A stretch of DNA of 64,000 nucleotides, taken from assembly GCA_051747965.1 (NCBI GenBank), contig JBNJGS010000001.1:40311-104310 (forward strand), in the 5' to 3' direction. Shown here in pieces: positions 3,863 through 53,656 of this stretch (positions within the stretch are counted from its first letter, which is position 1; each line of letters opens with the position of its first letter). The position numbers and the translations under genes were made by a program. The notes below the pieces were generated by a model, which was not told where the DNA came from, did no database searches, and saw only the letters and a program-made list of their open reading frames with translations. The DNA is from Bacteroidota bacterium. GTDB taxonomy: Bacteria; Bacteroidota; Bacteroidia; Bacteroidales; ML635J-15.

Positions 3863-3868
3863 AGTACT

Positions 3869-6735: not shown

Positions 6736-6803
6736 ATGATACTATTGTATTTCCAGGCAGTTTCTATCAGCAGGCAGGTCACAAAAGACACAGCTTTGCG
6801 CAT

Positions 6804-6832: not shown

Positions 6833-6857
6833 TATCTTGATTGATATTGTTTGAACT

Positions 6858-8177: not shown

Positions 8178-8211
8178 ATGCTTCAGTTTAATCTGTAAAT
8201 AAAATATAAAA

Positions 8212-9117: not shown

Positions 9118-9145
9118 AAATCAAAAAATCAGATAATCGGCAAAA

Positions 9146-9766: not shown

Positions 9767-9777
9767 GGTTTCTCAAT

Positions 9778-10896: not shown

Positions 10897-10898
10897 AA

Positions 10899-11291
10899 CT
10901 ATGTAAGGAGTTTGTTGATGACTGAATACAATCTTTCTGTTTCTATACCTTTTTCAAGGTAGGCATCTGCCTTTATCCAGGCCTGATCCTGTTGTTCCTG
11001 AAGTCTGAATGAAATGCCTGTTTCTGCCGCCACGTTGGTAGCAATAACAACAGGGACATCGGGATACCTTGATTTACAACGAAAAGCCAGAACAAATCCG
11101 CTGTCATCGTTTTCCATCATAAGGTCAAAAATGGCCAGATCCGGCCTGACCTGCTTCAGGATGTTCTCGGCTTCTTTCTGACTCTCAGCCGTGATAAGCT
11201 CAAATCCGCTTTTTTCAAGTTTGAATGATGTCTGAAACAAATAATCAGTATCATCATCAGCCAGCAGAATTATTTTCTTTGTTTTCTCCAT
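10899..11291 (-). CDS. stand-alone response-regulator receiver protein (no output domain)
   Basis: 130 aa. It has ILLADDDTD and the phospho-acceptor context LAIFDLMM. No DNA-binding or enzymatic domain follows. Confidence 0.85.
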   Translation of the reverse strand: MEKTKKIILLADDDTDYLFQTSFKLEKSGFELITAESQKEAENILKQVRPDLAIFDLMMENDDSGFVLAFRCKSRYPDVPVVIATNVAAETGISFRLQEQQDQAWIKADAYLEKGIETERLYSVINKLLT

Positions 11292-11296
11292 ATTTT

Positions 11297-14970: not shown

Positions 14971-14975
14971 GGTAT

Positions 14976-16907
14976 CTAATCTGTCTTGATCGCGTTAAAC
15001 TTACAATTATCATAACACAGTCCGCAGCCTATGCACTTTTCCTTAACAATAAAGTACGGATGTCTGGCCACCCCGATGATAGCATCAGCAGGGCACTTGC
15101 GTGCACAGATGGTGCAACCGGTACATAAATCCACATCTATGGTGTAGGATTTGAGTTCCTTGCATACGCCTGCTTTGCATTTGCGGTCAAAGATATGTTC
15201 CTCATATTCATTTCGAAAATGTTCAACGGTGCTCAAAACCGTATTTGCTGCATTTTGCCCCAGGCCGCAGAGGGAAGTTTCTTTCATAACTTTGGCAAGG
15301 CTTTCAAGCTGCATAACACCTTTGAACCGTTCCAGTGATTTGTGTCCGGTTTCATCATACGGCTTGCGGGTAATCCGGGTCAGGATATCAAGCATACGCT
15401 GGGAGCCTTCTCTGCAGGGAATACATTTTCCACAGGATTCCTGCTGGATAAAACGCATAAAATACCTGGCAAGGCTGATGATACAATTGCTTTCATCAAG
15501 CACAAGAAAACTTCCGCTTCCCATTTTAAGGCCGGCTTTTTCCATGGCAGCAAAATCCATGGGGATATCCAAATTGCTGGTATTTATCACACCACCTGAT
15601 GGTCCGCCAATATGGACAGCTTTTAATTCTTTATCACCGGGAACACCGCCACAGGTTTGGATTATATCACGCACTTTGGTACCCATTTCAACTTCCAGGA
15701 CGCCGGTTTTGGCAATTTTCCCGCTCACGGACAGTAGTTTTGTACCCGGACTGTTTTCTGTACCGGTTTTTTTGAATTTTTCTCCCCCCTGCCTTATAAT
15801 GTATGGCACATTGGCCAGTGTTTCCAGGTTGTTAACTACAGTGGGTTTACCAAACAGCCCTCTTTCCGCCGGATATGGTGGTTTGGGCTGAGGCATTCCC
15901 CTTTTGCCTTCCAGGCTGGCAATCAAAGCTGTTTCTTCACCACACACATGAGCCCCCGGACCTTCTTTAATGTCAATATACAACTCAAAACCACTGTTGA
16001 AAATATTATCTCCAAGCAACTCATACTCATAGGCCTGCTTCAGTGCGGTTTTCAGACGCTGTATGGCAAGTTTATACTGATTCCGGATGTAAATGATTGC
16101 CCGGTTTGCCTGTATGGCATAAGCGGCAATTGCCACACCCTCAATTACCTGGTGTGGATCACCTTCTACCAGGTGTCTGTCCACAAAAGCCCCCGGATCA
16201 CTCTCATCAGCATTACAGATGATATATCTGGAGGCTTCAGATTGTTCAAGTGCTGCCAGCCACTTGTCGCCGGTGAGATAGGCAGATCCGCTGCGCCCTT
16301 TAAGTCCAGCAGACTTAACAATCCTGCATACTTCCTCTGATGTATGGGCTGTAATTGCTTTAGCAAATGCCCGGTATCCTTCAGAAATGATGTATTCATC
16401 AATATTATCAGGAGATATTATTCCCGTTCGCCGGGTGAGATGTTTTTTCTGTGTATTGAAAAAGCTGAGATTGTTCAGGTATGGCACATCATCCCATTCC
16501 GCAAGATTAGCCTGGGGATATTGTCCCAGATTGCCGTAGTCCGGCAGGAAATTGTTTGTTACCGCATCCATCAATTCTGCCACCTTCTCTTCAGTAATTC
16601 TTGCAAAACTGATACGGGTTCTGCCGGGAATCTGCACATCAACAATGGGCTCAGCAGAACACAACCCGATGCAACCTACTTCAATAACTTCTGCATCCAG
16701 ATTTTCTTCCTTAATATGCTCAATTATCTTATTCTTTGTTTTGTCTGCACCCGCGATAACACCACAGCTTCCCATACCAACATAAATCACCGTTTTCCGG
16801 ACAAAATCCCGGCGTATGGTGGCAATGTTTCTATCCAGCACAGCATTGCCTTTCGGGGGATTGGGCCCCATAAGAAGAAGCGGGAGATGTTCTTTAATCA
16901 AATTCAT
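14976..16907 (-). CDS. hydB: NuoF-like flavoprotein subunit of trimeric hydrogenase (HydB-like)
   Basis: 643 aa. An N-terminal thioredoxin-like region has Cys (GMGSCG, VGCIGLCSAEP). The NuoF core shows CNADESDPGAF, GAHVCGEETALIASLEG, KPPYPAERGLFGKPTVVNNLET and ESCGKCIPCREG. The C-terminus has two ferredoxin motifs (CTGCTICARKCP, CIGCGLCYDNC). Confidence 0.85.
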   Translation of the reverse strand: MNLIKEHLPLLLMGPNPPKGNAVLDRNIATIRRDFVRKTVIYVGMGSCGVIAGADKTKNKIIEHIKEENLDAEVIEVGCIGLCSAEPIVDVQIPGRTRISFARITEEKVAELMDAVTNNFLPDYGNLGQYPQANLAEWDDVPYLNNLSFFNTQKKHLTRRTGIISPDNIDEYIISEGYRAFAKAITAHTSEEVCRIVKSAGLKGRSGSAYLTGDKWLAALEQSEASRYIICNADESDPGAFVDRHLVEGDPHQVIEGVAIAAYAIQANRAIIYIRNQYKLAIQRLKTALKQAYEYELLGDNIFNSGFELYIDIKEGPGAHVCGEETALIASLEGKRGMPQPKPPYPAERGLFGKPTVVNNLETLANVPYIIRQGGEKFKKTGTENSPGTKLLSVSGKIAKTGVLEVEMGTKVRDIIQTCGGVPGDKELKAVHIGGPSGGVINTSNLDIPMDFAAMEKAGLKMGSGSFLVLDESNCIISLARYFMRFIQQESCGKCIPCREGSQRMLDILTRITRKPYDETGHKSLERFKGVMQLESLAKVMKETSLCGLGQNAANTVLSTVEHFRNEYEEHIFDRKCKAGVCKELKSYTIDVDLCTGCTICARKCPADAIIGVARHPYFIVKEKCIGCGLCYDNCKFNAIKTD

Positions 16908-16916
16908 AGGCTGTGC

Positions 16917-17375
16917 TTATTTGTTGTTTAATGTCTTGATTATCTGGTCAAGTTTTTGTTTGCTCAGGCGTGTATGGTAAGTATCATTGACCTGAATAAC
17001 AGGCGCCAGCGCACAGGCTCCCAGGCAACTCACCTCTTCAATGCTGATTTTTCCGTTTTTGGATACGCCGTTATCCATGATATTCAATTTGGAAATGAGC
17101 GTATCACGCAGGCTGTCCGCTCCCATCACATGACAGGCTGAACCAGCACACATGCGGATATGAACAGGGGCATTTTCACGAAACCTGAACTGATTATAAA
17201 AAGTAGCAATGCCATATATCCGGCTTCCCGGAATACTGAGAGCCTTTGTTATTTCCCTGATGTGCTCTTCAGTGATGTATCCCTGCTCATTTTGCACCTC
17301 CTGTAATATCGGAATCAGGTCCTTTTGCGCCTTATCGGGATACTTATAAATAATATGTTTTATGCCTGCTGCCAT
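16917..17375 (-). CDS. hydC: NuoE-like [2Fe-2S] subunit of trimeric hydrogenase (HydC-like)
   Basis: NuoE pattern: YPDKAQKDLIPILQEVQNEQGYI, GIATFYNQF, MCAGSACHVMG and VSCLGACALAP. The track ORF begins at TTG 17414. I prefer ATG 17375 (MAAGIKHII...), because the extra 13 codons fall in AT-rich DNA that carries palindromes and a promoter-like box. Confidence 0.8.
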   Translation of the reverse strand: MAAGIKHIIYKYPDKAQKDLIPILQEVQNEQGYITEEHIREITKALSIPGSRIYGIATFYNQFRFRENAPVHIRMCAGSACHVMGADSLRDTLISKLNIMDNGVSKNGKISIEEVSCLGACALAPVIQVNDTYHTRLSKQKLDQIIKTLNNK

Positions 17376-17388
17376 CTTACTTTTTTTA

Positions 17389-17396
17389 CAAATATA
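17389..17396 (-). promoter_or_regulatory. candidate Bacteroidota -7 promoter box (TATATTTG) for the hyd operon
   Basis: The minus strand reads TATATTTG, which matches TAnnTTTG. It lies 13 nt upstream of ATG 17375. Confidence 0.4.
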
Positions 17397-17403
17397 AGAA
17401 ATA

Positions 17404-17415
17404 TTTGTTAACAAA
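17404..17415. promoter_or_regulatory. perfect 12-bp palindrome TTTGTTAACAAA (fused Rex-like half sites)
   Basis: Read directly from the sequence. It consists of overlapping TTGTTAA/TTAACAA half-site sequences with no spacer. Confidence 0.35.
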
Positions 17416-20205: not shown

Positions 20206-21225
20206 TTAATATCTGTCACAAGGAATTGCAAAGCGTTCAATATCTTTCACAAAATTGGTATAAACAATGGATAACTCAAAAGCTCCTTTAAAATTACTGG
20301 CTTGTCTCAGCCCGGAAATATTGACATCATAACTGATGCCAACATCAAAACCCATGACACCCACCCCGGCTTTAAATATCAGAGCATCCGTGGAATGGAG
20401 TTGAGTTCTGACACCTCCGCCGGCATATATTTTTTCAAGCAGGTCTTCCAGGGGAAACTCATATCCGGCTACAGCTCCGAAAAGAAAATTGCTTGCTTTG
20501 GTTGTAAAACCGGTGTACAAATCGGGCCGGGCAAACCATTGCTCTGTCAGCTCAATATCTGCATAAGCACTGACTGCATACCGCAGGGGAAGTTTTGCAT
20601 CATCATCCCGCAGGAAGCTTAGCGAAGGATTGTTGATGTGATACAGACTCAGACCGGCAACAGGTGTGATTTTTCCGTAGGTTCCGGACCAGGCCACACC
20701 CAGGTTGATATCGGGATAATTGACATTCTCATCCCATGTATCAAGGTAGGATGGCATTTCCGAATCAAACAATCCGGTATTCGGATTGTATTGTCCGGGA
20801 AAAGTAAGCGGATCATGATCAAAAGTATTGACTACATAGCCTGCCTGCAATCCACCCGAGAGATCATGACCAGCTATTTGGGTATGCCATGACAGGGAAA
20901 GATATACCTTATTGGCTGTCAGTGCCGCAGCACCCGACTGATCGTTTACAAAATAAACACCTGCCCCAAGAGTTCCTGCAACAAAGTTAAATGGCTTGTC
21001 AAATCCGGCAGATATGGTTTTAAACGGAATTCCTACAGAACTCCACTGGTTCCGGTAATTGTTACTGAATCGCCAATTGCCTTCAAACATCCCTGTATAA
21101 GCCGGGTTTACATGCAACGGACTCTTACCAAACTGCGAAAAATGAATATCCTGAGCAGAAAGATCAGACACCTTTAACACAGATAAAAGAACCAGAATGG
21201 TTATGAAAATTTGGTTTTTTTGCAT
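20206..21225 (-). CDS. T9SS membrane protein PorP/SprF family
   Basis: 339 aa. A signal peptide is followed by AQDIHFSQFGKSPLHVNPAYTG...YRNQWSSVG, the characteristic PorP/SprF N-terminal signature. Confidence 0.85.
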   Translation of the reverse strand: MQKNQIFITILVLLSVLKVSDLSAQDIHFSQFGKSPLHVNPAYTGMFEGNWRFSNNYRNQWSSVGIPFKTISAGFDKPFNFVAGTLGAGVYFVNDQSGAAALTANKVYLSLSWHTQIAGHDLSGGLQAGYVVNTFDHDPLTFPGQYNPNTGLFDSEMPSYLDTWDENVNYPDINLGVAWSGTYGKITPVAGLSLYHINNPSLSFLRDDDAKLPLRYAVSAYADIELTEQWFARPDLYTGFTTKASNFLFGAVAGYEFPLEDLLEKIYAGGGVRTQLHSTDALIFKAGVGVMGFDVGISYDVNISGLRQASNFKGAFELSIVYTNFVKDIERFAIPCDRY

Positions 21226-21306: not shown

Positions 21307-24300
21307 ATGCCATTACTAAAAATTATTTCTGCCATTGTTGCCTTTGCTATCATGTCCTTAAGTATTGCAAACGCACAGCCTGTGGCCGATTTTGAAATCG
21401 GGGAAGGCGAAGAGTCTGTATGTGTCAACGAAAATATTCATTTTACCAATCTCAGCGATACCTCTGCATGTTCCGGTGATGTTTCCTGGGTATGGGATTT
21501 TGGAGACGGAGCCACTTCTACGGTCTACAACCCGGTGAGAAATTATGATGCACCAGGCACTTATGATGTGGTTCTTACCATAACCTGTGATGGGTTTAGT
21601 GATGCAGAGCTCATGAGTATTTCCGTGCTGCCCACACCGGATGCAGGATTTCAGGATGTGAGCTTTACAGGATGCGCACCACATACGGTAAATTTCGTGA
21701 ATACCACAACACAAATAGGCGGTGGAAACATTGACGGATATACCTGGAATTTCGGCGATGGCACAAGCAGTGCAGATGAAAATCCTGAACATACCTATAC
21801 TCAGGCAGGTACTTATACCATTACACTTGAGGCCACCAATGAAAACGGCTGCACATCATTTGCCAGTCAGGAGAATGCCATTACCCTGTCTGCCGTTCCT
21901 GAACTTAGTCTGTCTGCCAACCCCCAGTCACATTGCCAGACTCCTGTGAATATTGATTTTACTTCAAACATCAATGTTACATCAGGGTTGGATTACGACA
22001 TTGACTGGGATTTCGGGGATGGCGGAAATGCCACAATTGAAAATCCAAGCCATGAATATACCAGCAATGGAGATTATGATATCAGCCTGACTGTCACAGA
22101 TGAATATGGTTGCACCAACACCATTGACTCCATTGATTATGTACATGTGCATCCGGTAACACCGGATTACACAATTCTGGATGATGACTCTCAGGAAATA
22201 ACCAACAACATCACCTGCATTAACACAAACACGTATTTTGTATGCAACAATGCAGGCTATGATGTGGAATGGGATTTTGGCGAGGGCAGCACATCGTCAA
22301 ACAGTACGGCAGCCTTTTCTTTTTCTACTTCCGGCTCACATAACATCACCATGACGGTAGACCCCGGAGGTGTCTGTGAAGCCTCAAGCGTGATCAATCT
22401 TACTGTTGAAGATCCAGAGCCCACTTTTATTGTTGATGAGGATTTCAGCTGTACAGCTCCTTTTACAGTCCAGTTTACCAGCGATGCTTCAACAACAATC
22501 GATGAATACGACTGGTTGTTTGGCGATGGCTTTGACGACGCTCAGGAAAATCCATCGCATACTTATAACGAAACAGGAACATTTACCCCGGTACTTGAGG
22601 TTGTTTCCTCCAATGGTTGCGAAGCACAGTATTCAGGCCCGGAAATCAATATCAGCTCTCCTTCCGCTTCATTTTCCGTGGATACGACAGAGGGCTGCCT
22701 TGGCATCATATTCAACACAAGCTACGACAGCATTACCCATCCCGACGAAATCACAGATTTTACATGGGATTTCTACAGCAATATAGAATCACTGTCAGAT
22801 CCGTTTTCCTCCGGCACCGAGGAGTCTCATGCATATACAGATACAGGGGAATATATCATCAGCCTTACTGTAACAGATACTTCCGGATGTATTTCTGATT
22901 TTGAACTTGATGTGCAGGTTGGTGAACATCACATGCCATTATTTGATACCCTGGCATACCCGCACTTGATTTGTCCCCAGGATTCTCTGGACTTCTATAG
23001 TCTCTCCGAAGATCCAGATTATATTGATGACTATGAGTGGCTTATGGGAGACACCAATTCCTGGCAATGGGGTACTTTTGAAGAACAGGACCTGGAGGAT
23101 TTCATGTTTGAAGAAGATACCGGGTATGTGCAGGTAGTCCATGTAGTAAATCATAACGGATGCAGAGATTCACTATACATGCCGGACTTCTTTTATGTGC
23201 GGGGGCCGGTAATTCATAATATTGAGATTACCCATGACTGTGAGCAGGGCACTGAATACCTGTTTACACTTGATGCAGTACTGGCCAGTGAATGGGATTG
23301 GTTTGTATATGATGATGCAGGAAACCAAGAGTCTCAGCATTTATCCACAACCGATACCACGCTTATATGTAATTTTACACAAAACGGCGAATACTGGGTT
23401 CATGCTCTTGCCAGAAACGACACAACAGGTTGCGATTATATTGATTCGGTGAAAGTGAATGTGATACAACCGGTGGCAAATTTCGATCTGTCTCCTGCTA
23501 ACATTTGTGCAGGAGAACCGGGCTATAGTTTTACTGAAAGTGGCAGTGAACATGCCGATAGCATTTACTGGGATTTTGGTGATGGTGAAAATTCCGGTTG
23601 GTTACCCCCCTCAGAAGACACCGGTGAATTTGATGCTGTCACCCATGCATACGATACGGTAGGGGATATTGAAGTATGGCTGCATGTACAGGATGAAAAC
23701 GGCTGCGTGGATTCTGTGATGCGCGTTTTACACCTTATGGGTCCGATGATAACAATAGATTCAGATTATCCACTGGAAGGCTGCACTCCTTTCAATCTTT
23801 TGATCGAAGGCGAGGTTGAGGCAGATGATGCCATCAGCTACATGAGTGTTGAGGTGGCAGGTAATGGCACAGATGAACCGGCGGTAAATGGAACAGGTCT
23901 GCTGCCGTTCTCCTCGGAATTCAACATCAACGAAGCCGGCGTATATGATGTGGAAATCACCGCTGTATCCGGAGGATGCACCAATACCAACACATATCCT
24001 GATTTTCTGACACTCACTTCACTGAATGCTGATTTTACGGCCGCCTCGGTAAATGATAATGATCGTGAATTATGTGCAGGTGATGCTGTTGAATTCACCC
24101 CGGACACATTATATGGTCCGGATTATGATTATGAATGGGATTTTGGTGACGGCTCTCCTGCCAGCAGTGAACTCTCACCGGTTCACACCTATACAAGCCC
24201 CGGAAGTTATGATGTAAGTCTGACTGTTTCAGGGAATGGCTGCACCCGGGATGAAATCAAAACAGCCTATATTGAAGTAGAGGAAGCTGATGCCGGCTTT

Positions 24301-25860
24301 AGTATTGCCACAACAGCAATTTCATGTCCGCCATTTAACATTGAAGCCGGCGATATAACACTGGATGCCCCGGAGTTAGACAATGCTACATACATCTGGG
24401 ATTCCGATTCCGGAAATCCTAATGCTCCTGCCGGTGACGGCTACAATTCTTATGAATTCTCCTACTTTGAAGCTGGTGATTATCAGCTTCATCTGGAAGT
24501 GGTAACGAGTTTTGGCTGTCAGGATGAAAATTCCGTGATGCTAAATATTGACGGCCCTTCAGGCGATCTGTATGTCAATGGTGAGCCTGTGCAGCACAAT
24601 GGCACTGTGAACGCATGCCTTAATGAAACACTGGAATTTTCTTTGGAAAACACTGAAGGACTGGATTCTATAGAATGGACATTTGATGACGGTTACTCAG
24701 ACACGGTTTTATCTACCAGCCATATTTATACCAGTTTGCCCAATGAAGGAAATACCTATGATGTGGATGCAAGCATGCACGGATCAGACTGCAGCTATCC
24801 GTTGACAGTTCATGTGATGATTCACGATGTGATGTCACAGTTTTCACTGATAGATCCCGAATACGGCGTGCCCGCAGATACTGCTCAGTGCAGTCCCTTT
24901 GTGATTGACCTGATAAACAACTCCATTGGTGATGATCTGACATACAACTGGACAGTGGAAGGAATTGGCAACCATACAGATGAAGATTGGACAGGGGTGG
25001 AATTTGTCAACGACAGCCAGCAGGATTTGGTTGTGGATATCAGCCTGAGCGTAACCAATGCTGAGGTTGGCTGCTCAGATACCAGCAGCAGGCAGGTGGT
25101 TGCCGGCTACATTCCTGATCCGCAGATTACGCCGGATACCATCATTTGTGAAGGTGACAGTTTTCATCTTCACGCATCCAATGGTTCTCACTATCTCTGG
25201 TACCCCGGACTTTACCTTAGCGACACAGAGGTGGCTGAACCACAGGCTATGCCGGAAGAAGACATGACCTATTATGTAACAGTTACCGCAGACAACGGTT
25301 GCAAGAACTCCGATTCTGTCCACATATGGCTGCAACATCCGGTCAACAGTTCAATAGGCAGCGAATGGGACAGCATTGTGATCGGTGAAAGCATTTCCAA
25401 CTTTGTCAGCGTGGATCAGGAAAACTCTAGTATTCTCTGGAGTCCCGATGAATCCATTTCCTGTTTAGATTGTGAAAACCCGGTATTCAATCCGCTTGAA
25501 GACCAGGACTACGTTGTTGAAATCTCAGACAGTCTGTCATGTTTTACCAATATTTATGCTTATTCTGTTTTTGTCGATCTAAGTTTCACACTTGATGTAC
25601 CAAAGGCATTTACTCCGGAAGGCAATGAAATCAACCGGCTTGTATTTGTGCGTGGGCATGGCATCAGGGATCTGAAAGAATTTGCCATATACAATCGCTG
25701 GGGTGAGGAGCTTTTCCGCACTGATGATATCAAGCAGGGCTGGGACGGCTATTACAAAGGCAAACTACAACCGGTGGATACTTATGTGTATTATGTGGAA
25801 GCTGAAATGTACAATGGCAAAATCAAAAGCAAAAAAGGCACCATTATGCTGATGCGCTAA
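21307..25860 (+). CDS. PKD-repeat surface protein with T9SS type B (gliding-motility-associated) C-terminal domain
   Basis: 1517 aa. It has many WDFGDG...NPxHxY PKD-type repeats. The C-terminus is VPKAFTPEGNEINRLVFVRGHGI...FAIYNRWGEELFRT...GWDGYYKGKLQPVDTYVYYVEA. Confidence 0.85.
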   Translation: MPLLKIISAIVAFAIMSLSIANAQPVADFEIGEGEESVCVNENIHFTNLSDTSACSGDVSWVWDFGDGATSTVYNPVRNYDAPGTYDVVLTITCDGFSDAELMSISVLPTPDAGFQDVSFTGCAPHTVNFVNTTTQIGGGNIDGYTWNFGDGTSSADENPEHTYTQAGTYTITLEATNENGCTSFASQENAITLSAVPELSLSANPQSHCQTPVNIDFTSNINVTSGLDYDIDWDFGDGGNATIENPSHEYTSNGDYDISLTVTDEYGCTNTIDSIDYVHVHPVTPDYTILDDDSQEITNNITCINTNTYFVCNNAGYDVEWDFGEGSTSSNSTAAFSFSTSGSHNITMTVDPGGVCEASSVINLTVEDPEPTFIVDEDFSCTAPFTVQFTSDASTTIDEYDWLFGDGFDDAQENPSHTYNETGTFTPVLEVVSSNGCEAQYSGPEINISSPSASFSVDTTEGCLGIIFNTSYDSITHPDEITDFTWDFYSNIESLSDPFSSGTEESHAYTDTGEYIISLTVTDTSGCISDFELDVQVGEHHMPLFDTLAYPHLICPQDSLDFYSLSEDPDYIDDYEWLMGDTNSWQWGTFEEQDLEDFMFEEDTGYVQVVHVVNHNGCRDSLYMPDFFYVRGPVIHNIEITHDCEQGTEYLFTLDAVLASEWDWFVYDDAGNQESQHLSTTDTTLICNFTQNGEYWVHALARNDTTGCDYIDSVKVNVIQPVANFDLSPANICAGEPGYSFTESGSEHADSIYWDFGDGENSGWLPPSEDTGEFDAVTHAYDTVGDIEVWLHVQDENGCVDSVMRVLHLMGPMITIDSDYPLEGCTPFNLLIEGEVEADDAISYMSVEVAGNGTDEPAVNGTGLLPFSSEFNINEAGVYDVEITAVSGGCTNTNTYPDFLTLTSLNADFTAASVNDNDRELCAGDAVEFTPDTLYGPDYDYEWDFGDGSPASSELSPVHTYTSPGSYDVSLTVSGNGCTRDEIKTAYIEVEEADAGFSIATTAISCPPFNIEAGDITLDAPELDNATYIWDSDSGNPNAPAGDGYNSYEFSYFEAGDYQLHLEVVTSFGCQDENSVMLNIDGPSGDLYVNGEPVQHNGTVNACLNETLEFSLENTEGLDSIEWTFDDGYSDTVLSTSHIYTSLPNEGNTYDVDASMHGSDCSYPLTVHVMIHDVMSQFSLIDPEYGVPADTAQCSPFVIDLINNSIGDDLTYNWTVEGIGNHTDEDWTGVEFVNDSQQDLVVDISLSVTNAEVGCSDTSSRQVVAGYIPDPQITPDTIICEGDSFHLHASNGSHYLWYPGLYLSDTEVAEPQAMPEEDMTYYVTVTADNGCKNSDSVHIWLQHPVNSSIGSEWDSIVIGESISNFVSVDQENSSILWSPDESISCLDCENPVFNPLEDQDYVVEISDSLSCFTNIYAYSVFVDLSFTLDVPKAFTPEGNEINRLVFVRGHGIRDLKEFAIYNRWGEELFRTDDIKQGWDGYYKGKLQPVDTYVYYVEAEMYNGKIKSKKGTIMLMR

Positions 25861-27232: not shown

Positions 27233-28741
27233 TCAGTCCTCATCGCTTTGATGCCAGTCCCTGCTTCTTTCAACAGCACGTTTCCATCCTGCGTATAAGG
27301 TCTGTCTCTTCCCGGGGTCCATGGCAGGCTGAAAATTTTTGCCGGTCTTCCACATTTGACTCAGTTTCTGCATATTGGCAAAACCCACACCCAGGGCTGC
27401 CAGAAAGGCGGCTCCCAGGGCAGTGGTTTCGGTAATCTCAGGTCTTGAAACTGCCAGGCCGGTGATATCTGCCTGAAACTGCATCAGAAAATTATTGGTA
27501 GTTGCACCACCATCAACACGCAGGCTTTCTGTTTCAAGTTCAGCACTTTCCTGCATAATTTCCAATACATCGCGGGTCTGGTAAGCAAGGGATTCGAGCC
27601 CGGCACGAACAATCTCCGCTTTGCCGGCAGCCTGTGTAATTCCCACAATGGTACCTCGGGCATCCGGATCCCAGTATGGTGTACCCAAACCGGCAAAAGC
27701 AGGGACAAAATAAACACCGGCAGTATTGTCTGTCTGAGCGGCCAGTGTTTCTGATTCTGCTGCCGTATCAATCAATCCCAATTTATCACGCAGCCATTTG
27801 ATGGTAGCTCCGGCAAAAAAAACCGAGCCTTCCAGGGCATAAGTCGGGATGCCATCAATACGCCAGGCTACTGTACGCAACAAACCATCTTCCCGGATCG
27901 CAGGACAAGTATTTCCCACATTCATCAACATAAAACAACCCGTACCATACGTATTTTTTACCATGCCGGGCGTGTGGCATGCCTGGCCGAACAGGGCTGC
28001 CTGCTGATCACCGGCAATGCCTGTTATGGGGATAGATACTCCTGAAAACAGATCGGGATGGGTTTTGGCAAGCATACCGGAAGAATCACTCAGTTCAGGA
28101 AGCATAGCAGCCGGCACGTCAAAATAGTGGAGCAATTCATCATCCCAGTCAAGGGTGAGAATATTGAAAAGCAGCGTACGTGAAGCATTGCTTACATCTG
28201 TGATGTGGTATTCACCTCCACACATTTTCCATATCAGCCAGCTATCAATGGTACCAAACAAATATCTGCCCTGTTTGGCTCCGTCCATGATATCAGGATA
28301 GGAATTCAGCAGCCATTGCAATTTGGTACCTGAAAAATAAGGATCACTGAGCAGGCCGGTTTTGCGACGTATTATCCGCGAAATTTCCTCCTGCCCCATA
28401 CGCTCGCACTTATTGGCTGTACGCTTATCCTGCCAGACAATACAAGGATACACAGGCTTACCGGTTTTCTTATCCCACACCACAAAGCTTTCTCTTTGAT
28501 TGGTGATTCCGATACCGGCAATTTCAGATGGATGAATATTGAGCTTTTGCATCACATCCCGGGCTGTTTTTATCTGGGTTTCATATATGGCAACCGGGTC
28601 CTGTTCAACCCAAGCGTCTTTCGGATATTGCTGCGTGGTTTCTTCCTGACTGAGACCAAGCAATCGAAAGTTCTTATCAAAAACAAGGCTCCGGCAACTG
28701 GTTGTGCCCTGATCAAAAGCAAGAATGTATGATTTTCCCAT
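27233..28741 (-). CDS. glpK: glycerol kinase
   Basis: 502 aa. YILAFDQGTTSCRSLVFD, GITNQRES and GDQQAALFGQ are FGGY kinase / GlpK signatures. Confidence 0.92.
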   Translation of the reverse strand: MGKSYILAFDQGTTSCRSLVFDKNFRLLGLSQEETTQQYPKDAWVEQDPVAIYETQIKTARDVMQKLNIHPSEIAGIGITNQRESFVVWDKKTGKPVYPCIVWQDKRTANKCERMGQEEISRIIRRKTGLLSDPYFSGTKLQWLLNSYPDIMDGAKQGRYLFGTIDSWLIWKMCGGEYHITDVSNASRTLLFNILTLDWDDELLHYFDVPAAMLPELSDSSGMLAKTHPDLFSGVSIPITGIAGDQQAALFGQACHTPGMVKNTYGTGCFMLMNVGNTCPAIREDGLLRTVAWRIDGIPTYALEGSVFFAGATIKWLRDKLGLIDTAAESETLAAQTDNTAGVYFVPAFAGLGTPYWDPDARGTIVGITQAAGKAEIVRAGLESLAYQTRDVLEIMQESAELETESLRVDGGATTNNFLMQFQADITGLAVSRPEITETTALGAAFLAALGVGFANMQKLSQMWKTGKNFQPAMDPGKRQTLYAGWKRAVERSRDWHQSDED

Positions 28742-28863
28742 AGACTTGATTTGTTTTGAGACCTAAAGATAACAAATACTGTTGTATTCACAGCACATCA
28801 TGTCCAACTGATAGCTGAATAAACACAAACCCGGGCAGCATGTCATAGATTCTCAAATCCAAA

Positions 28864-29796
28864 TCACTTTTTCAGTTTTCTGAGGTAGAAATTGTGTTCC
28901 CCAAAATTCAATTTCAGAAGCTTCTTGTCATTGATGAGCTGTTCCACAAGCTGCATATCTGCATTGTTCTTGTTGAGCAATTCCCGGAGTGCATCCTCAC
29001 GCATGGGATGTACCGCGGTAATACTGAGAATATCTGATTCAGCATCTCCGCTGGCGGCAAAAGCATTGCCTTCATACCCAATCAACAACTCAGCGCGTTT
29101 TACTTTTTCAGAAAACAATGCCCAGGCCGTTTGCAGGGCTTTTTCTCCGGCCGGTTTAACATCCGGATCAGCAGGCGGACGTGTGGGAATGGCGATATAT
29201 GCCACATCAGGATTTATTTCACCCAGAAAATCAGCCATCTTACGCAATTCAGCTTCCTTGTCATTGTATCCATCTATCAGCATACTTTCTGTCATAAGAT
29301 AGCCCTCATAGGCAGACGCAAAATCACGCACACCCTGTTTTACGGTTTCGAAATCCAGGTTTTTATGCGGGCGATCCACTTTACGCCACATCTCTTCTGT
29401 TGCAGCATCTACTTTGACTGATACGCGATCAGTTTTGAGCAAAGCCTTCCTCACCTGCTCATCCCACAACAATGATGCGTTGGAAATCACTGCTACGGGC
29501 ACATCCAGCTTTTTCAGGCCGGTAATCAATTCTTCCAGACGGGCATCCAGGGCAGGCTCCCCATCGGGAACGAGGGTAAGATAATCCACTTTATCAGCAG
29601 TATTAAGCCGCTCTTTCACCTGCCGGACAATATCTTCCGGGTCATAAAATGCCTCACGTTCTGTCTGCATGCGAATGGCATTCCCAAGCTGACAATATCT
29701 GCAGGCGTAGGTACATATTTTCGGCGGTATGTGGTTGATTCCAATACTTTGTCCCAGCCGCCTCGATGGAACAGGACCAAATATTATCTGAGCCAT
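28864..29796 (-). CDS. radical SAM protein (unknown substrate)
   Basis: 310 aa. The N-terminus is FGPVPSRRLGQSIGIN followed by the CX3CX2C motif (CTYACRYC). It is the last gene of a tightly packed 5-gene operon. Confidence 0.8.
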   Translation of the reverse strand: MAQIIFGPVPSRRLGQSIGINHIPPKICTYACRYCQLGNAIRMQTEREAFYDPEDIVRQVKERLNTADKVDYLTLVPDGEPALDARLEELITGLKKLDVPVAVISNASLLWDEQVRKALLKTDRVSVKVDAATEEMWRKVDRPHKNLDFETVKQGVRDFASAYEGYLMTESMLIDGYNDKEAELRKMADFLGEINPDVAYIAIPTRPPADPDVKPAGEKALQTAWALFSEKVKRAELLIGYEGNAFAASGDAESDILSITAVHPMREDALRELLNKNNADMQLVEQLINDKKLLKLNFGEHNFYLRKLKK

Positions 29797-29803
29797 AAAA
29801 CCA

Positions 29804-30118
29804 TTATTTTACTTTTTTCAGTGCTTCGCGAATGCTGATTTGTCCGACTTGAGATTTCATCTTCACCCCTGCCTGTTTCAGTACATCTGAAGCTTTGGGG
29901 CCAAAAGGACCACTGGTGACAACCATATCTGCATCTGCCTGAATCACGCTCTGTGCAGCCTGAATGCCAACACCATGTCCGGCATTTTTTTCCGTGTTCT
30001 CAATAAAATGCAGACTGTCATCAGCATCATCGTACACGACAAAACCTGCAGCCCGTCCAAAACGTTCGTCCAAAACAGCATCAAAAGATGCCTTATTTGC
30101 TGGAAATACAATTTTCAT
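29804..30118 (-). CDS. NifB/NifX-family (dinitrogenase FeMo-cofactor-binding-like) small protein
   Basis: 104 aa. ERFGRAAGFVVYD and MVVTSGPFGPKA...LKQAGVK show the typical small NifX-like fold pattern. Confidence 0.75.
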   Translation of the reverse strand: MKIVFPANKASFDAVLDERFGRAAGFVVYDDADDSLHFIENTEKNAGHGVGIQAAQSVIQADADMVVTSGPFGPKASDVLKQAGVKMKSQVGQISIREALKKVK

Positions 30119-30128
30119 AACTTTTTGT

Positions 30129-31004
30129 TTATTTTACTGTGTTTACAATATCCTGCCATATATTTTCAAAAATGGCAGTTAAATCACTGCGTCCGGTTTC
30201 CGGGACAGTCAAGCCTTCACTAACAGCCCTTGAAAATACCGGATCATATGGCAATTCCCGTGTATATCCAAGGTTGTTTTCTTCGGCAAATGCTTTGATT
30301 TTCCTGCGATAATCAGGATTAATATCTGCTTTGTTCAGAACTATCATGGCTGGAATTTCCATTTTCTGCAGCAATTCATTGACTCTTTTCATATCGTGCC
30401 AGCCGGAAGTGGTGGGTTCGGTCACCACCAATGCCATAGAAGCACCGGACATGGCAGCAATTACAGGACATCCAATCCCCGGCGGGCCATCTGTAAGGAT
30501 GATATCCCGGCCTTCCCTTTCAGCAATCACACGACTGCGGTTTTTTACTTCGGTTACCAGTTTTCCGGAATTATCTGCTCCGATGTTTAGTTTTGCGTGT
30601 ACCATAGGACTGCTTTGTCTGGTAAAAGCCTCGAACAGGATACCGGCTGCCTGGGTTTCCAGGTGCAGGGCATTGTGGGGGCAGACATGGGTACACAAAC
30701 CGCAACCTTCACATTCTATGGGATTAATTTTCAGTTCTGCATTCTCAACAGATATGGCATCAAAATGGCAATGATCAATGCAAATGCGGCAACGGATACA
30801 TTTTTCCTGATTGACAACAGCCAATTTCCCACCATAAAAAATTTCTTCTCTGGTATTGTCCGGAGCCATCAGCAAATGCATATCGGCAGCATCCACATCG
30901 GCATCCGCCAGTACAATATCATTGGCAGCAAGCCATGCCAGCCCGGCGGTTATGGATGTCTTTCCACATCCACCTTTTCCGGATATTACAACAACTTCTT
31001 TCAT
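30129..31004 (-). CDS. MinD/ParA-type P-loop ATPase with inserted 2x[4Fe-4S] ferredoxin domain
   Basis: 291 aa. It has a deviant Walker A (SGKGGCGKTS), the inserts CIRCRICIDHC and CEGCGLCTHVCP, and DGPPGIGCP. Confidence 0.85.
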   Translation of the reverse strand: MKEVVVISGKGGCGKTSITAGLAWLAANDIVLADADVDAADMHLLMAPDNTREEIFYGGKLAVVNQEKCIRCRICIDHCHFDAISVENAELKINPIECEGCGLCTHVCPHNALHLETQAAGILFEAFTRQSSPMVHAKLNIGADNSGKLVTEVKNRSRVIAEREGRDIILTDGPPGIGCPVIAAMSGASMALVVTEPTTSGWHDMKRVNELLQKMEIPAMIVLNKADINPDYRRKIKAFAEENNLGYTRELPYDPVFSRAVSEGLTVPETGRSDLTAIFENIWQDIVNTVK

Positions 31005-31891
31005 ACATCCATCCGTTTTTTCAGATTATCCGTCAGTGTATTCCAGGCATCGGCAATCTCTTCATTCAGGTTATATACAAGCTCTCCACGTGAGTAAGCT
31101 TCTGCAATGGCCTGACTCTGAGGTATACGGCCCAGAATTTCCAGACCTTCTTTTTGACAATACTCTTCTATCAACTCATCCCTGCCGCTACCTGCTTTAT
31201 TGATCACAACACCTGTGGGTCTGCCAAGCTTTCGGACAGTTTCTACAGCAAGCCCAAGATCGTGGAGTCCAAAAGGTGTTGGTTCAGTTACCATCAGCAC
31301 ATAATCTGCATCTTTGGTTACCTCCATCATGGGACAAGACGTTCCGGGCGGTGCATCAATAAGAATCAGGCTGTCATCCACTGCAGCTTTTTCCATTTTG
31401 TCCAGTGCTTCGGAAATCAAGGGGACAGCACTGGGCTGGCCAACTTCCAGACGGTTTTCTATCAGACTGAGATTTTCCTGTACCGGTTTGAAATACCGGG
31501 ATTCGCCCATCCTGTGTTTTTTCATTGGCAGGGCATCAGCCGGGCAAAGGGTGGAACAGGCATGACAGGAATGACAAAGGTCCGGAAATATCAAAACCCT
31601 GCTACCTAAAAACGCGATGGCATTGAACTCGCAGACCTGAGAGCATTTGTTGCAGAGCGTACATTTTTGCTCCTCCCAAACAGGTACAAGACGGTGCTCA
31701 TCCTGAACAAGTATTGTTTTTGCATCACTAAAAAACAGGGAGGCATTGGGTTCCTCTACATCCAGATCGCTGAGTAAAACCTGATTCGCAAAAGCAGGCA
31801 AATCTTCAGCCAGCCGGGCAGCAAGGTTTACTGACAAACTGGTTTTACCCGTTCCGCCTTTACCACTGGCAATGGCAATTTTATATCTCAT
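31001..31891 (-). CDS. MinD/ParA-type P-loop ATPase with inserted 2x[4Fe-4S] ferredoxin domain (paralog)
   Basis: 296 aa. It has SGKGGTGKTS, CTLCNKCSQVCE, CHSCHACSTLCP and DAPPGTSCP. There is a 4-nt overlap with the downstream paralog. Confidence 0.85.
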   Translation of the reverse strand: MRYKIAIASGKGGTGKTSLSVNLAARLAEDLPAFANQVLLSDLDVEEPNASLFFSDAKTILVQDEHRLVPVWEEQKCTLCNKCSQVCEFNAIAFLGSRVLIFPDLCHSCHACSTLCPADALPMKKHRMGESRYFKPVQENLSLIENRLEVGQPSAVPLISEALDKMEKAAVDDSLILIDAPPGTSCPMMEVTKDADYVLMVTEPTPFGLHDLGLAVETVRKLGRPTGVVINKAGSGRDELIEEYCQKEGLEILGRIPQSQAIAEAYSRGELVYNLNEEIADAWNTLTDNLKKRMDV

Positions 31892-31897
31892 AATCTT

Positions 31898-32233
31898 TTA
31901 GTGATCACACAGATTCTCATTTGTCACCAGTTTTCCTGCAAGAAAATCTTCTACCAGACGATCAGCAGTTTTGCCGGGGACACCTACATAAACATTTACA
32001 CCGGCCTCCTGAAAAAGGGTAATGGCACGCTGTCCCATACCTCCGGCAAGAATATCTGTAGCGCCTTTATCTGCCAGCCATTTGGGCAGCAAGCCGGGCT
32101 CATGAGGAGGTGCATCCAGCAAAACATGCTTCTTTACTTCATTATTTTCAGTATCATATAAAGCAAAATGATCACAATGACCAAAATGCTGACTCAATAA
32201 TCCGTTGGATACGGGGATGGCAACTTTTTTCAT
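31898..32233 (-). CDS. NifB/NifX-family small protein
   Basis: 111 aa. The motifs are HFGHCDHFALYD and ILAGGMGQRAITLFQEAGVNVY. Confidence 0.75.
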   Translation of the reverse strand: MKKVAIPVSNGLLSQHFGHCDHFALYDTENNEVKKHVLLDAPPHEPGLLPKWLADKGATDILAGGMGQRAITLFQEAGVNVYVGVPGKTADRLVEDFLAGKLVTNENLCDH

Positions 32234-32257
32234 TTTTTATTGTCTTTTGGTTCGGGA

Positions 32258-32265
32258 CAAAGGTA
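32258..32265 (-). promoter_or_regulatory. candidate -7 box (TACCTTTG) for the NifX/MinD-Fer4/radical SAM operon
   Basis: The minus strand reads TACCTTTG, which matches TAnnTTTG. It lies about 25 nt upstream of ATG 32233. Confidence 0.4.
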
Positions 32266-32419
32266 ATTATTTTAAACATATGTTCATTACAAAAATGATT
32301 TGATTTTAATAAAATCCTTAATTACCGAATAGAATGGGTGTATAACAAAATTTGTTGATAAAAGCCTTTCTGTTTTTCAATTTTAGATTTTACCTTTACA
32401 TCGAATTAATCAGAAAGCT

Positions 32420-34255
32420 ATGGAAAACTTTATTGTATCGGCAAGAAAATACCGTCCGGAATCATTTGAATCCGTTGTTGGTCAGGAGAATATCACCCGG
32501 ACACTGAAGAATGCCATCGGTCAGAAGCAGCTTGCCCAGGCGTATTTGTTTTGCGGGCCCCGTGGTGTTGGCAAGACAACCAATGCGAGGATTTTTGCCA
32601 AGACAATCAATTGTGAGAATCTGGATAATGATTTGAATCCATGCAATAAATGTGAAAGCTGCATTGCATTTAACGAGCAACGTTCGATGAACATCCACGA
32701 GTTGGATGCGGCCTCCAACAATTCTGTTGAAGACATCCGAAATCTGATTGATCAGGTCAGGATTCCTCCCCAGATAGGGCATTACAGTGTTTACATCATT
32801 GATGAGGTACATATGCTGAGCAGTTCAGCCTTCAATGCTTTCCTAAAAACGCTGGAGGAACCCCCTTCCCATGCAATTTTTATTTTGGCGACCACTGAAA
32901 AGCACAAGATTCTGCCCACCATCCTTTCGCGCTGTCAGGTATATGACTTCAATCGTATTGGTGTGAGAGAGATTGCCGACCGGTTGAGATTTGTTGCCAT
33001 GGAGGAGCAGATAGAAGCAGAAGTTGAAGCCTTGCAAATCATTGCTCAGAAGGCAGATGGTGCCATGCGTGATGCACTTTCAATATTTGATCAGATTGTT
33101 TCATTTTCCGGCAAAAAAGTAACATATCAGGATGCCATTGATAATCTGAATGTGCTGGATTATGATTATTATTTTCGTCTCACCGATGCTTTTCTTGCTG
33201 CCGATCATCTTGAAAGCCTGTTGATTTTCAACGAGATTCTGGAACACGGCTTTGACGGAAACTATTTCATCACTGGTCTGGCTGCTCATTTCCGCGACAT
33301 TCTGGTAGCAAGAGACACAAAGTCAAGCGAATTGCTGGAGGTTGGAGATAAAATCAAGGAGAGTTATATGACAACGGCAGGCAAATGCAGTGAGGCTTTT
33401 CTGATAAAAGCACTGGAATATGCCACAGAATGTGATTACCGGTACAAGGGCAGTCAGAACAAGCGTTTGCATGTGGAACTTGCTTTGATACGGATCAGCA
33501 ATATAATGCGTAACTCAAAGAAGCCTGTAAGCAGTGGGCAACCATCAGCACAACCCACGACAGAGCCCAAAAGGCCGGCACAGCCAAAGCCAAGCCCTGA
33601 GCGCAATGCAACGGTTTCACATGATCCGACGGGAAAATACGGACAATCTGAGGCTAAAAACGAGATAAAAAAGCCGGTTTCGAACAATCCTCAGCCACAG
33701 GAAAAACCAGACACGGAAAAAACCGGACCAGTGGCAGGCACATCCCATGATCAAAATGGCAAACCAGGTAATCCGCAAGCGAAGCAAGGCAATGGCAGCG
33801 GTATTTCCATTATGGCAGAGCTAAACAAAGCAGAAACAAATACTGAAAAAGCCGAAAAAGACAACAGCAGCCCGGGAGTTTCCGCTGAGGAAAATTTTGA
33901 TCAGGAAGCCTTAACAGGTGCATGGCTTTCTTTTGCTGAAAAGCATAAGAACCAGCCCCGTCTTTATCAGAACCTGAAAAAATACCAGCCGGTACTGAAA
34001 GACGGATTTAAACTTGAGGTAGAGATGCCTTCGGAAAGCATGAAACGGGTTATTTTAAACATCAAACCGGAAATAGTCCGCGATTTGCAGGAGCACTTAA
34101 ACAACGGCAAACTGGACTTGTTTGTCACTGTGCAGGAAATTGAAAACAATGGTTCAAAAACACCATACACAGCGGAAGAAAAATATGAGGCCATGGCACA
34201 AAAAAATCCTGCTATTCAGAAGTTGCGCCACGATTTTGACATGAATGTGCGATAA
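32420..34255 (+). CDS. dnaX: DNA polymerase III subunit gamma/tau
   Basis: 611 aa. It has the AAA+ core (GPRGVGKTT, IIDEVHML), a Zn module (CNKCESC), SRC (LSRCQ), and then a Pro/Gln-rich linker and C-terminal tau-like region. Confidence 0.9.
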   Translation: MENFIVSARKYRPESFESVVGQENITRTLKNAIGQKQLAQAYLFCGPRGVGKTTNARIFAKTINCENLDNDLNPCNKCESCIAFNEQRSMNIHELDAASNNSVEDIRNLIDQVRIPPQIGHYSVYIIDEVHMLSSSAFNAFLKTLEEPPSHAIFILATTEKHKILPTILSRCQVYDFNRIGVREIADRLRFVAMEEQIEAEVEALQIIAQKADGAMRDALSIFDQIVSFSGKKVTYQDAIDNLNVLDYDYYFRLTDAFLAADHLESLLIFNEILEHGFDGNYFITGLAAHFRDILVARDTKSSELLEVGDKIKESYMTTAGKCSEAFLIKALEYATECDYRYKGSQNKRLHVELALIRISNIMRNSKKPVSSGQPSAQPTTEPKRPAQPKPSPERNATVSHDPTGKYGQSEAKNEIKKPVSNNPQPQEKPDTEKTGPVAGTSHDQNGKPGNPQAKQGNGSGISIMAELNKAETNTEKAEKDNSSPGVSAEENFDQEALTGAWLSFAEKHKNQPRLYQNLKKYQPVLKDGFKLEVEMPSESMKRVILNIKPEIVRDLQEHLNNGKLDLFVTVQEIENNGSKTPYTAEEKYEAMAQKNPAIQKLRHDFDMNVR

Positions 34256-50947: not shown

Positions 50948-50952
50948 TTATT

Positions 50953-52034: not shown

Positions 52035-52083
52035 CATATAATATGCAGCATAATCTTAAATGCTTTTCTTATATTCGTTGATT

Positions 52084-52476: not shown

Positions 52477-52485
52477 GCTGAGAAC

Positions 52486-53244: not shown

Positions 53245-53380
53245 ATCCTTCGGGCAGTCTGGTAAAATTTCTGTTTAACAAAGCGGTCTCTAAGTTTTGG
53301 CAGGGCTGCATGATTTTGGAAAAACTATTTACTACCGGATATTTCTTTTTTCACCCCTCACCTGAAATCAAACACAAGCA

Positions 53381-53566: not shown

Positions 53567-53656
53567 ATAAGTCACACTTGTCAAGCTCAGAGCCGGTTTA
53601 AACATTTTTCGGGTACATGTGTTATATTGGTACATTAATTAGAAACATTCTAAATT

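Follow-up and report, generated by a model that had tools for sequence, protein, structure and literature searches.

A 64,000-nt stretch of DNA from a Bacteroidota bacterium (contig JBNJGS010000001.1, positions 40,311-104,310 of the forward strand), referred to here as the window, contains a compact operon of five genes, g1 to g5, the first four of which very probably represent the core of the orp system, that is, of the orange protein (ORP) complex known from Desulfovibrio. The fifth gene encodes a radical SAM enzyme that is likely to be functionally coupled to the other four. Taken as a whole, the explanation that we favour on balance is that the orp core would handle metal-sulfur clusters in an ATP-driven manner, with the radical SAM protein as an accessory partner. 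The ORP system itself is already known, while the radical SAM gene, the lack of MrpORP and OrpR at the locus and the Bacteroidota host are new.

The host is an anaerobic organism, and its operon consists of tightly packed minus-strand genes in the order NifX-fold, ATPase, ATPase, NifX-fold, radical SAM. In particular, g1 (31898-32233) codes for a 111-residue, Cys/His-rich NifX-fold (Di-Nase) protein that is Orp5-like by Pfam, NCBIfam and BLASTP; g2 (31001-31891) for a 296-residue MinD-type ATPase with a 2x[4Fe-4S] ferredoxin insert and the motif PPGTSCP; g3 (30129-31004) for a second MinD-type Fe-S ATPase, of 291 residues and with the motif PPGIGCP (both by Pfam and BLASTP); g4 (29804-30118) for a 104-residue cysteine-free NifX-fold protein, identified by phmmer and BLASTP as the ORP/Orp8 orthologue; and g5 (28864-29796) for a 310-residue radical SAM enzyme (Pfam PF04055) of an uncharacterised anaerobe family. 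Successive genes are spaced by 6, -4 (an ATGA overlap), 10 and 7 nt, as computed from the open reading frame (ORF) coordinates. This five-gene anatomy, with its coordinates, spacings and motifs, had been described in an initial annotation of the window and was confirmed by the ORF list, Pfam and the translations. The exact five-gene module is also found in Bacteroidota relatives whose radical SAM proteins are 95, 81, 68 and 65% identical to g5 and whose flanking genes differ. The 7-nt gap preceding g5 and the maintenance of the module amid varying flanks point to transcription of g5 together with g1-g4.

The operon is flanked by a divergent dnaX (32420-34255, plus strand) and by glpK (27233-28741, minus strand). 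Bacteroides promoters are known to have a TAnnTTTG consensus, and reading of the 186-nt g1-dnaX intergenic region gave a weak candidate for a Bacteroidetes-type -7 element, TAccTTTG (32258-32265, minus strand), some 24 nt upstream of the ATG of g1. Scans of the operon region for sigma-70 promoters and terminators returned sites no commoner than in shuffled sequence, and an Rfam scan of positions 28600-32500 found no riboswitch, its lone match (algC, E value 0.44) being due to chance. The genes of the window were surveyed by Pfam scan or recognised from their translations, as was the case for glpK, dnaX, a BamA-like protein and a PKD-repeat protein of the type IX secretion system (T9SS). Nearly all ORFs of at least 250 residues outside the operon were covered in this way (the region 52060-55110 partly), and no nitrogenase gene was found among them, in agreement with the initial annotation, which had described the operon as free of nitrogenase context. 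The ORF at 52486-53244 gave no Pfam match.

Knowledge of the orange protein goes back more than two decades, and a 2011 study is said to have described the ORP complex as 'anaerobe-specific'. In Desulfovibrio vulgaris the complex comprises Orp3, Orp4, Orp5, Orp8 (the orange protein) and Orp9/MrpORP, and it was isolated by pull-down, with Orp3 co-purifying with Orp4 and Orp8 (PMC6345978). Orp3 and Orp4 are paralogues that have two [4Fe-4S] ferredoxin motifs each, Orp8 holds S2MoS2CuS2MoS2 non-covalently, and MrpORP, a fusion of an Mrp/NBP35 and a Di-Nase domain, passes Fe-S clusters to Orp3, Orp4 and Orp8 (PMC6345978). MrpORP's Di-Nase domain holds a [3Fe-4S] cluster with a midpoint potential (Em) of -445 mV, for which HFGHC, PPHxPG and CDH are the proposed ligands (PMC6345978). 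The orp genes are under sigma-54/OrpR control, with the complex having been tentatively tied to cell division (PMC6345978), and they are expressed solely at very low redox potential (PMC6345978, PMC8359166). The statement of the initial annotation that genes of this kind have no assigned function is outdated in view of this literature on pull-down, regulation and a proposed role in division.

The features that define the ORP system are present in the operon: a small cysteine-free NifX-fold homologue of ORP/Orp8 (g4), adjacent paralogous ATPases of the Orp3/Orp4 type with two ferredoxin motifs (g2 and g3), and a second Di-Nase protein with Cys/His motifs (g1). Orthology was assessed by BLASTP, in one direction only, against a locus of Desulfovibrio sp. 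X2 (L166) that stands in for D. vulgaris (DvH). This locus, along with its ORP homologue P0194, was recovered starting from the D. gigas ORP sequence and encodes two sigma-54 PAS activators, two small Gly/Arg-rich proteins, ORP, two ATPases (ATPase-302 and ATPase-315) and a 126-residue NifX-like protein that, to judge from its sequence, is probably Orp5-like. By BLASTP, g1-g4 each have as best match a different L166 protein, in a one-to-one fashion. The assignment of g1-g4 to the orp core is made because each of them pairs with one ORP component, as indicated by the D. gigas ORP structure (PDB 2wfb), by L166 and by the HFGHC, PPHxPG and CDH motifs. The two operons share the four core proteins, the order NifX-ATPase-ATPase-NifX and 37-43% identity, whereas the two NifX-fold genes have swapped places in the window.

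Other differences concern regulation and cluster supply. Unlike in Desulfovibrio, neither MrpORP nor OrpR is encoded at the locus and no sigma-54 promoter was seen, the latter as judged by eye for a -24/-12 motif of the GG-N10-GC type in the 186-nt upstream region. In particular, phmmer found no further P-loop or NifX-like ORF in the window that could be MrpORP, which may be encoded elsewhere in the genome, and no gene for an OrpR-like sigma-54 activator stands beside the operon, its neighbours being dnaX and glpK. The host also differs, a Bacteroidota bacterium as compared with a sulfate reducer. To place the locus among others, two surveys were made, of 80 radical-SAM-centred genome loci and of 80 ATPase-centred metagenome loci (160 in total); an OrpR-like activator is present in L166 and in 7 of the 80 ATPase-centred loci. 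The two Gly/Arg-rich proteins of L166 (168 and 112 residues, 9059-9900), which precede ORP, have no counterpart in the window, and Gly/Arg-rich proteins of the DUF5320 type recur in 21 of the 80 radical-SAM-centred loci.

Both NifX-fold proteins match the Pfam family Nitro_FeMo-Co PF02579 (E values of 4.6e-19 for g1 and 1.3e-16 for g4), and they are related to distinct parts of the ORP system. On the one hand, g1 aligns with 118 bits to positions 265-365 of the NCBIfam MrpORP model, corresponding to the C-terminal domain, and is 37.6% identical by BLASTP to the 126-residue X2 protein. It contains HFGHC, PPHEPG, AGGMG and a C-terminal CDH, and an alignment of 19 full-length sequences, including g1 and 17 full-length relatives, showed HFGHC, PPH(E/Q)PG, AGGMG and the C-terminal CDH to be invariant. 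g1 has the same HFGHC, PPHxPG and CDH motifs as MrpORP's Di-Nase domain, from which it differs in being free-standing, with no Mrp/NBP35 P-loop domain. On the other hand, g4, whose translation contains no cysteine at all, matches D. gigas ORP nearly over its full length (PDB 2wfb; phmmer E value 1.6e-15 over residues 3-102) and is 37% identical to it by BLASTP (E value 3e-21), with an identity of 38.8% to the X2 ORP. The protein is nearer to ORP (60 bits) than to MTH1175 (32 bits), the homologue of IssA named in PMC5524996, and the TIGR nifX model gives it 17 bits only, the cut-off being 112. IssA, the thioferrate storage protein of Pyrococcus furiosus, is a non-Nif member of IPR003731 that binds anionic inorganic Fe-S species (PMC5524996), and its C-terminal tail, glycine-rich in the IssA clade, binds thioferrate (PMC6345978). 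Membership of IPR003731 outside the Nif group and an anaerobic host are common to IssA and the window proteins, whereas the tail is absent from g1 and g4, which stop where the globular domain stops.

The two ATPases are built alike, with a CbiA/ParA P-loop domain and two Fer4 motifs each by Pfam, a deviant Walker A that reads SGKGGTGKTS in g2 and SGKGGCGKTS in g3, a pair of CX2CX2CX3C motifs and the switch II sequences PPGTSCP and PPGIGCP, respectively. They are paralogues with 25% identity to each other, and each has its own counterpart in X2: g2 is 39% identical to ATPase-302 (213 bits, with 112 bits for the other X2 paralogue) and g3 is 42.6% identical to ATPase-315 (228 bits, with 125 bits for the other), all by BLASTP. 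Across an alignment of 28 sequences from both paralogue groups, no variation occurs in the GKGGxGK of Walker A, in any of the eight ferredoxin cysteines, in the Asp and Gly of Walker B/switch II or in the Cys of PGxxC (C179 of g3). The deviant Walker A GKGGxGK[ST] is shared with MinD, Mrp/NBP35, CooC and NifH, which are P-loop proteins of the SIMIBI class, and the known members of this class depend on dimerisation to function. What sets g2 and g3 apart is the insertion of a 2x[4Fe-4S] ferredoxin domain after switch I, together with the single invariant switch-II Cys, as compared with the CXXC of Mrp, the CXC of CooC and the two cysteines of NifH. A carrier of the Mrp/NBP35/ApbC type was considered and rejected, as the CXXC is absent and just one invariant Cys, that of PGxxC, is found outside the ferredoxin insert; the MrpORP model gave 47.5 and 35.9 bits on g2 and g3 at a cut-off of 450.

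At three loci the two ATPases are fused in a single chain of 605-615 residues, whose N-terminal half resembles g2 and whose C-terminal half resembles g3; the Walker A, the two ferredoxin motifs and PGxxC are retained in either half. Two of the fused genes come from Thermoplasmatales genomes (L066, 2010-3836; L079, 1420-3237, minus strand) and one from a metagenome contig (L142, 9056-10903). As Rosetta-stone cases, these fusions argue for a predicted obligate heterodimer of g2 and g3, in line with the report that Orp3 co-purifies with Orp4 and Orp8. At the interface of such a dimer, the lone switch-II cysteines of the two subunits could form a transient two-Cys site for a metal or a cluster.

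The last gene of the operon encodes a protein with a Pfam match to Radical_SAM PF04055 (E value 1.3e-17), an N-terminal FGPVPSRRLG and a single CX3CX2C site, CTYACRYC. C28, C32 and C35 are the only cysteines invariant among 20 homologues, and since these three are those of CX3CX2C, g5 is predicted to be devoid of auxiliary clusters, a point that speaks against chemistry of the NifB kind. Other blocks are invariant across the family, namely the N-terminal GPxPSRRxGxSxG, RPH, PxRPPA, GYEG and SITxVHPMR. The family is large, with at least 7997 clusters at 90% identity reached at E <= 1e-5 (the top 120 at least 51% identical to g5) and 734 representatives of 50%-identity clusters matching at E <= 1e-30, and its members belong to strictly anaerobic Bacteria and Archaea. 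No NCBIfam model scores above its cut-off for g5 (the best gives 42 bits) or for the relatives of its sister subfamily B; NifB, MoaA and tungsten-maturase identities were ruled out by NCBIfam score. A PDB search with the g5 sequence returned no match, no paper was found on the PSRRLG motif, and the literature held nothing relevant for COG1149, COG1433 or COG0731. The AlphaFold model of g5 (pLDDT 74.8) shows a partial barrel followed by a C-terminal domain of helix-helix-helix-hairpin, winged-helix-like form. Foldseek comparison of this model with the PDB gave generic radical SAM cores, namely viperin, PFL-AE, NifB, DesII and LipA, at template modelling (TM) scores of 0.46-0.50, and these predicted fold matches are uninformative on the substrate.

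Evidence for a coupling of g5 to the orp genes comes in part from the two surveys. Genes for Orp-type ATPases lie within the flanks of 20 of the 80 radical-SAM-centred loci, on the same strand in 17 of these 20; sixteen of the linked loci have two separate ATPase genes, two have the fused gene and two a single ATPase ORF. When only loci flanked by 5 kb or more on each side are counted, 12 of 33 are linked, and 19 of 55 when at least 5 kb upstream is required. The linked loci are spread over some 10 phyla, including bacteria (Bacteroidales, Bipolaricaulota, Dehalococcoidales, Anaerolineae, Aminicenantes and Thermotogae) and archaea (Thermococci, Thermoplasmatota, Hadesarchaea, Bathyarchaeia and Methanotrichaceae). 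In the opposite direction, a radical SAM gene of the g5 superfamily (at least 150 bits) is present in 11 of the 80 ATPase-centred loci, including 9 of the 28 that reach 12 kb or more. Adjacency within 8 kb in a genome of approximately 3 Mb would be expected by chance in about 0.5% of cases, by our own estimate. Because a linkage of approximately 35% is observed in both search directions as compared with this value, the linkage is real; it is also facultative. The initial annotation had named a lack of conserved linkage in related genomes as a point that would count against it; the linkage recurs across phyla and is missing from roughly two thirds of the well-flanked loci.

When the ATPase-centred loci are analysed by clustering, the radical SAM family is found in 14 of 80 and represents the fourth commonest accessory family, after zinc-ribbon proteins (19), IscU-like NifU_N (18) and MBL-fold proteins (17), and before DUF134 (13), class I methyltransferases (12), DUF89 (9) and the OrpR-like activators. 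Mrp and FeoB also occur among the neighbours, and the Fe-S theme of this wider neighbourhood (NifU_N/IscU-like, Mrp, FeoB) agrees with a role of the orp core in cluster handling.

The linked radical SAM genes form two diverged subfamilies, A (the g5 type) and its sister B, the latter recognised by the motifs VDLVP, SGEPTL and RRPC together with a clear winged helix, and members of both adjoin the ATPases. In one locus (L135) the radical SAM gene stands inside the ATPase pair. The co-directional genes of this locus (2159-14340) encode, in this order, a ferritin, a peroxiredoxin, a NifX-like protein, an ABC-2 exporter pair, an Orp-type ATPase, a methyltransferase, the radical SAM protein, another methyltransferase, the second Orp-type ATPase, a NifU_N(IscU)-Mrp fusion, TauE and a Cys/Met pyridoxal phosphate (PLP) enzyme. 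Furthermore, in six protein clusters drawn from independent assemblies (JGI, ENA and Logan), one chain joins a NifX-like domain to a radical SAM domain of subfamily B and a C-terminal winged helix (P0388 and P0391-P0395, 425-458 residues, with a cysteine-free N-terminal NifX-like domain). Loci of such fusions are L167 (2209-3549), L168 (1609-2949) and L169 (4131-5474), where an MBL-fold gene is directly upstream and ATPases are not nearby. Both surveys, the L135 insertion and the fusions bear out the position of the initial annotation that the radical SAM gene is no chance neighbour.

Based on these data, a mechanism can be proposed. g2 and g3 would form a heterodimeric MinD-type ATPase with two [4Fe-4S] clusters per subunit in the ferredoxin insert, the invariant switch-II Cys of each subunit being probably near the dimer interface. 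Binding and hydrolysis of ATP by this dimer would gate the docking, loading, redox state or hand-over of an inorganic metal-sulfur species. g1 would carry a Cys/His-ligated Fe-S cluster, like MrpORP's Di-Nase domain, while g4 would carry a non-covalent anionic cluster of the thiometallate type, like the orange protein. The co-transcribed g5 may act with the NifX-fold carriers by modifying the cargo, its ligand or a client, with electrons probably provided by the low-potential Fe-S domains of the complex. The anatomy of the genes, their orthology to ORP components, the recurrent linkage and the fusions are shown by the present data. By analogy with the Desulfovibrio orthologues, the proteins would form a complex, bind clusters and, where MrpORP is available, receive Fe-S from it; we infer in which direction clusters flow, what ATP does and what kind of substrate the radical SAM enzyme has. 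The initial annotation had envisaged an ATP-driven metallocluster system, and its general idea of handling and carrying matches the published work on ORP, while carbide-type chemistry is not supported.

Several observations weigh against cluster handling with a radical SAM partner. The phenotype reported for ORP in Desulfovibrio is an altered cell morphology rather than a metal-cofactor defect (PMC6345978). Of the well-flanked radical SAM loci, approximately 65% lack orp genes within 8 kb and, unlike the window operon, the X2 locus L166 has no radical SAM gene within 10 kb on either side. The orp linkage has been lost in one close relative of the window organism, L002, where no orp genes are found in the 8 kb upstream of a radical SAM gene (8001-8933) whose product is 81% identical to g5; the upstream ORFs encode 338, 663 and 141 residues. 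The NifX-radical SAM fusions are confined to the sister subfamily B, to one narrow lineage and to loci without ATPases. Finally, the neighbouring methyltransferase and TrmO-like genes (the latter in 6 of the 80 ATPase-centred loci) and the winged-helix-like C-terminus of g5 would also fit a nucleic-acid or small-molecule substrate.

These last points lead to the alternative that the radical SAM enzyme is an independent passenger acting on RNA or a small molecule, found near the orp genes through a gene set shared by strict anaerobes. In its favour, besides the unlinked loci just mentioned, JGI labels many g5 homologues as 'wyosine synthetase' (COG0731), and a class I methyltransferase (Methyltransf_11) is near the radical SAM gene in 17 of the 80 radical-SAM-centred loci. 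TYW1/Taw1 indeed resembles g5 in its radical SAM core and similar size and in being common in archaea, whereas the g5 family is widespread in bacteria. The TYW1 model TIGR03972 gives g5 28.7 bits at a cut-off of 317.95, the cysteines of the second cluster are absent, and TYW1 of Pyrococcus horikoshii ranks 37th in the fold search with a TM score of 0.41, so that assignment to TYW1 is rejected, the initial annotation having named a tRNA-modification family as a possible counter-argument. Linkage far above the chance estimate in two domains of life and two subfamilies, the insertion between the ATPase genes of L135, the NifX-radical SAM fusions, the 7-nt gap and the conserved module with varying flanks all stand against a mere passenger, and we consider this alternative unlikely.

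As to the neighbouring methyltransferases, the gene is directly upstream of the radical SAM gene in L010, L054, L063, L066, L075 and L079, often overlapping its start, and the window operon has no such gene. The NCBIfam matches of the methyltransferase and MBL-fold neighbours are generic and sub-threshold, the best being to a DVU_1556-family methyltransferase (68 bits, cut-off 155).

The morphology phenotype is more in keeping with a MinD-like positioning or cell-division system of the kind proposed for the Desulfovibrio ORP complex, in which the Fe-S and NifX-fold parts would be redox sensors that tune division under anoxia. A PDB search found no solved structure with the architecture of g2/g3, and the nearest ATPase domains are those of archaeal MinD (1g3q, 1hyq, 1ion), which speaks for such a system. 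Assignment to the MinD family itself fails by score (57.5 and 52 bits with minD_arch at a cut-off of 201.75, 34 and 49 bits with minD_bact at a cut-off of 212.9), and no minC, minE or fts genes were found near the operon in the window by Pfam scans and translations. Instead of division genes, those that recur nearby are IscU-like, Mrp, radical SAM, methyltransferase, MBL-fold and FeoB genes, and the NifX-radical SAM fusions would be left unexplained, making a division system quite improbable.

A comparably low probability is given to g2/g3 being an ATP-coupled low-potential electron pump, similar to NifH, BchL or CfbC, that would reduce the radical SAM enzyme or the g1 cluster. The membership of the SIMIBI class shared with NifH, the deviant Walker A, the four [4Fe-4S] sites per heterodimer and the invariant switch-II Cys, which we take to be near the position of the NifH cluster ligand, are all compatible with it, as are the Di-Nase domain's Em and the restriction of orp expression to very low redox potential referred to above (PMC6345978, PMC8359166). 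However, one Cys per subunit cannot ligate a bridging [4Fe-4S] cluster of the NifH type, most orp clusters of the ATPase-centred survey have no radical SAM gene, and no radical SAM enzyme is known to be served by its own ATP-driven reductase of this class.

The weakest alternative is that of a machine resembling a split NifB, where a complex metallocluster containing carbide or a ligand would be built by the radical SAM enzyme on the NifX-fold proteins, with clients such as [FeFe] hydrogenase or KorAB. It can draw on the presence of the NifX fold (PF02579) next to a radical SAM enzyme, as in NifB/NifX/NafY, on the existence of fusions, on NifB structures among the top fold matches and on the HydABC-type [FeFe] hydrogenase (13291-17414) and KorAB-type oxidoreductase (49094-51972) genes that are present in the window, as the initial annotation had implied (Pfam, translations), but it is highly improbable given that the three invariant cysteines leave no ligands for K1/K2-type auxiliary clusters, that the nifB model is absent among the g5 NCBIfam matches at E <= 0.01, that NifB does not surpass viperin or PFL-AE as a fold match, that the domain order of the fusions, NifX then radical SAM, is the reverse of that of NifB, and that the context is not one of nitrogenase. 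In NifB the two parts are combined in a single chain, as compared with adjacent g4 and g5 genes here. The carbide-type chemistry put forward in the initial annotation is likewise unsupported, and its proposed hydrogenase and Kor clients are rejected, as no hydrogenase, HydEFG or oxoacid oxidoreductase family is found among the recurrent neighbours in the 160 loci.

Beyond cluster handling by the orp core with a radical SAM partner, a wider and distinctly doubtful possibility is that the GPVPSRRLG-type radical SAM superfamily and NifX carriers represent a widespread nitrogenase-independent machine of strict anaerobes. Such a machine, often with a class I methyltransferase, would act chemically on an inorganic cluster of the metal-sulfur or thiometallate kind, or on the ligand of that cluster; its ATP-driven loader or insertase would be the Orp3/Orp4 Fe-S ATPase, and the ORP complex would serve cofactor maturation rather than cell division.

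Other features of the window were also noted. Following the HydABC genes, a minus-strand gene (11297-13294) encodes a 665-residue protein in which an [FeFe]-hydrogenase-like and an FeS domain are fused to HisKA/HATPase; a stand-alone receiver, a receiver-histidine kinase hybrid and Rex come next, and the whole minus-strand set (9146-17414) looks like a regulatory module for H2/redox sensing. An 817-residue protein combining a MurF-like Mur ligase and alanine racemase in one chain is encoded at 1409-3862 (plus strand). The Fe/Mn superoxide dismutase encoded at 53657-54445 (plus strand) is extended at its N-terminus by about 50 residues and stands in a gene set that is otherwise that of a strict anaerobe. 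Three surface proteins of very large size, sorted by the T9SS, are encoded at 21307-25860 (plus strand), 55177-61044 (minus strand) and 61260-63914 (minus strand); these proteins have PKD, SprB and Ig-like repeats and CHU_C/Por_Secre_tail domains, and PorP/SprF is encoded at 20206-21225.

The cellular role of ORP is unsettled, with proposals that include cell division, Fe-S handling and Mo/Cu-S handling. No radical SAM gene is mentioned in PMC6345978 or PMC8359166, and the synteny in the 2011 ORP paper may already show some. The present analysis extends the orp core to Bacteroidota, at a locus with neither sigma-54/OrpR nor MrpORP. The recurrent recruitment of radical SAM genes, the L135 insertion and the NifX fusions shift the weight towards a chemical, cofactor-related role of the system, and concrete partners can be named, g5 with g1 and g4, which provides a testable lead on ORP function. 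At the same time, a large radical SAM family that has been mislabelled as wyosine synthetase or left generic is given a first functional context.

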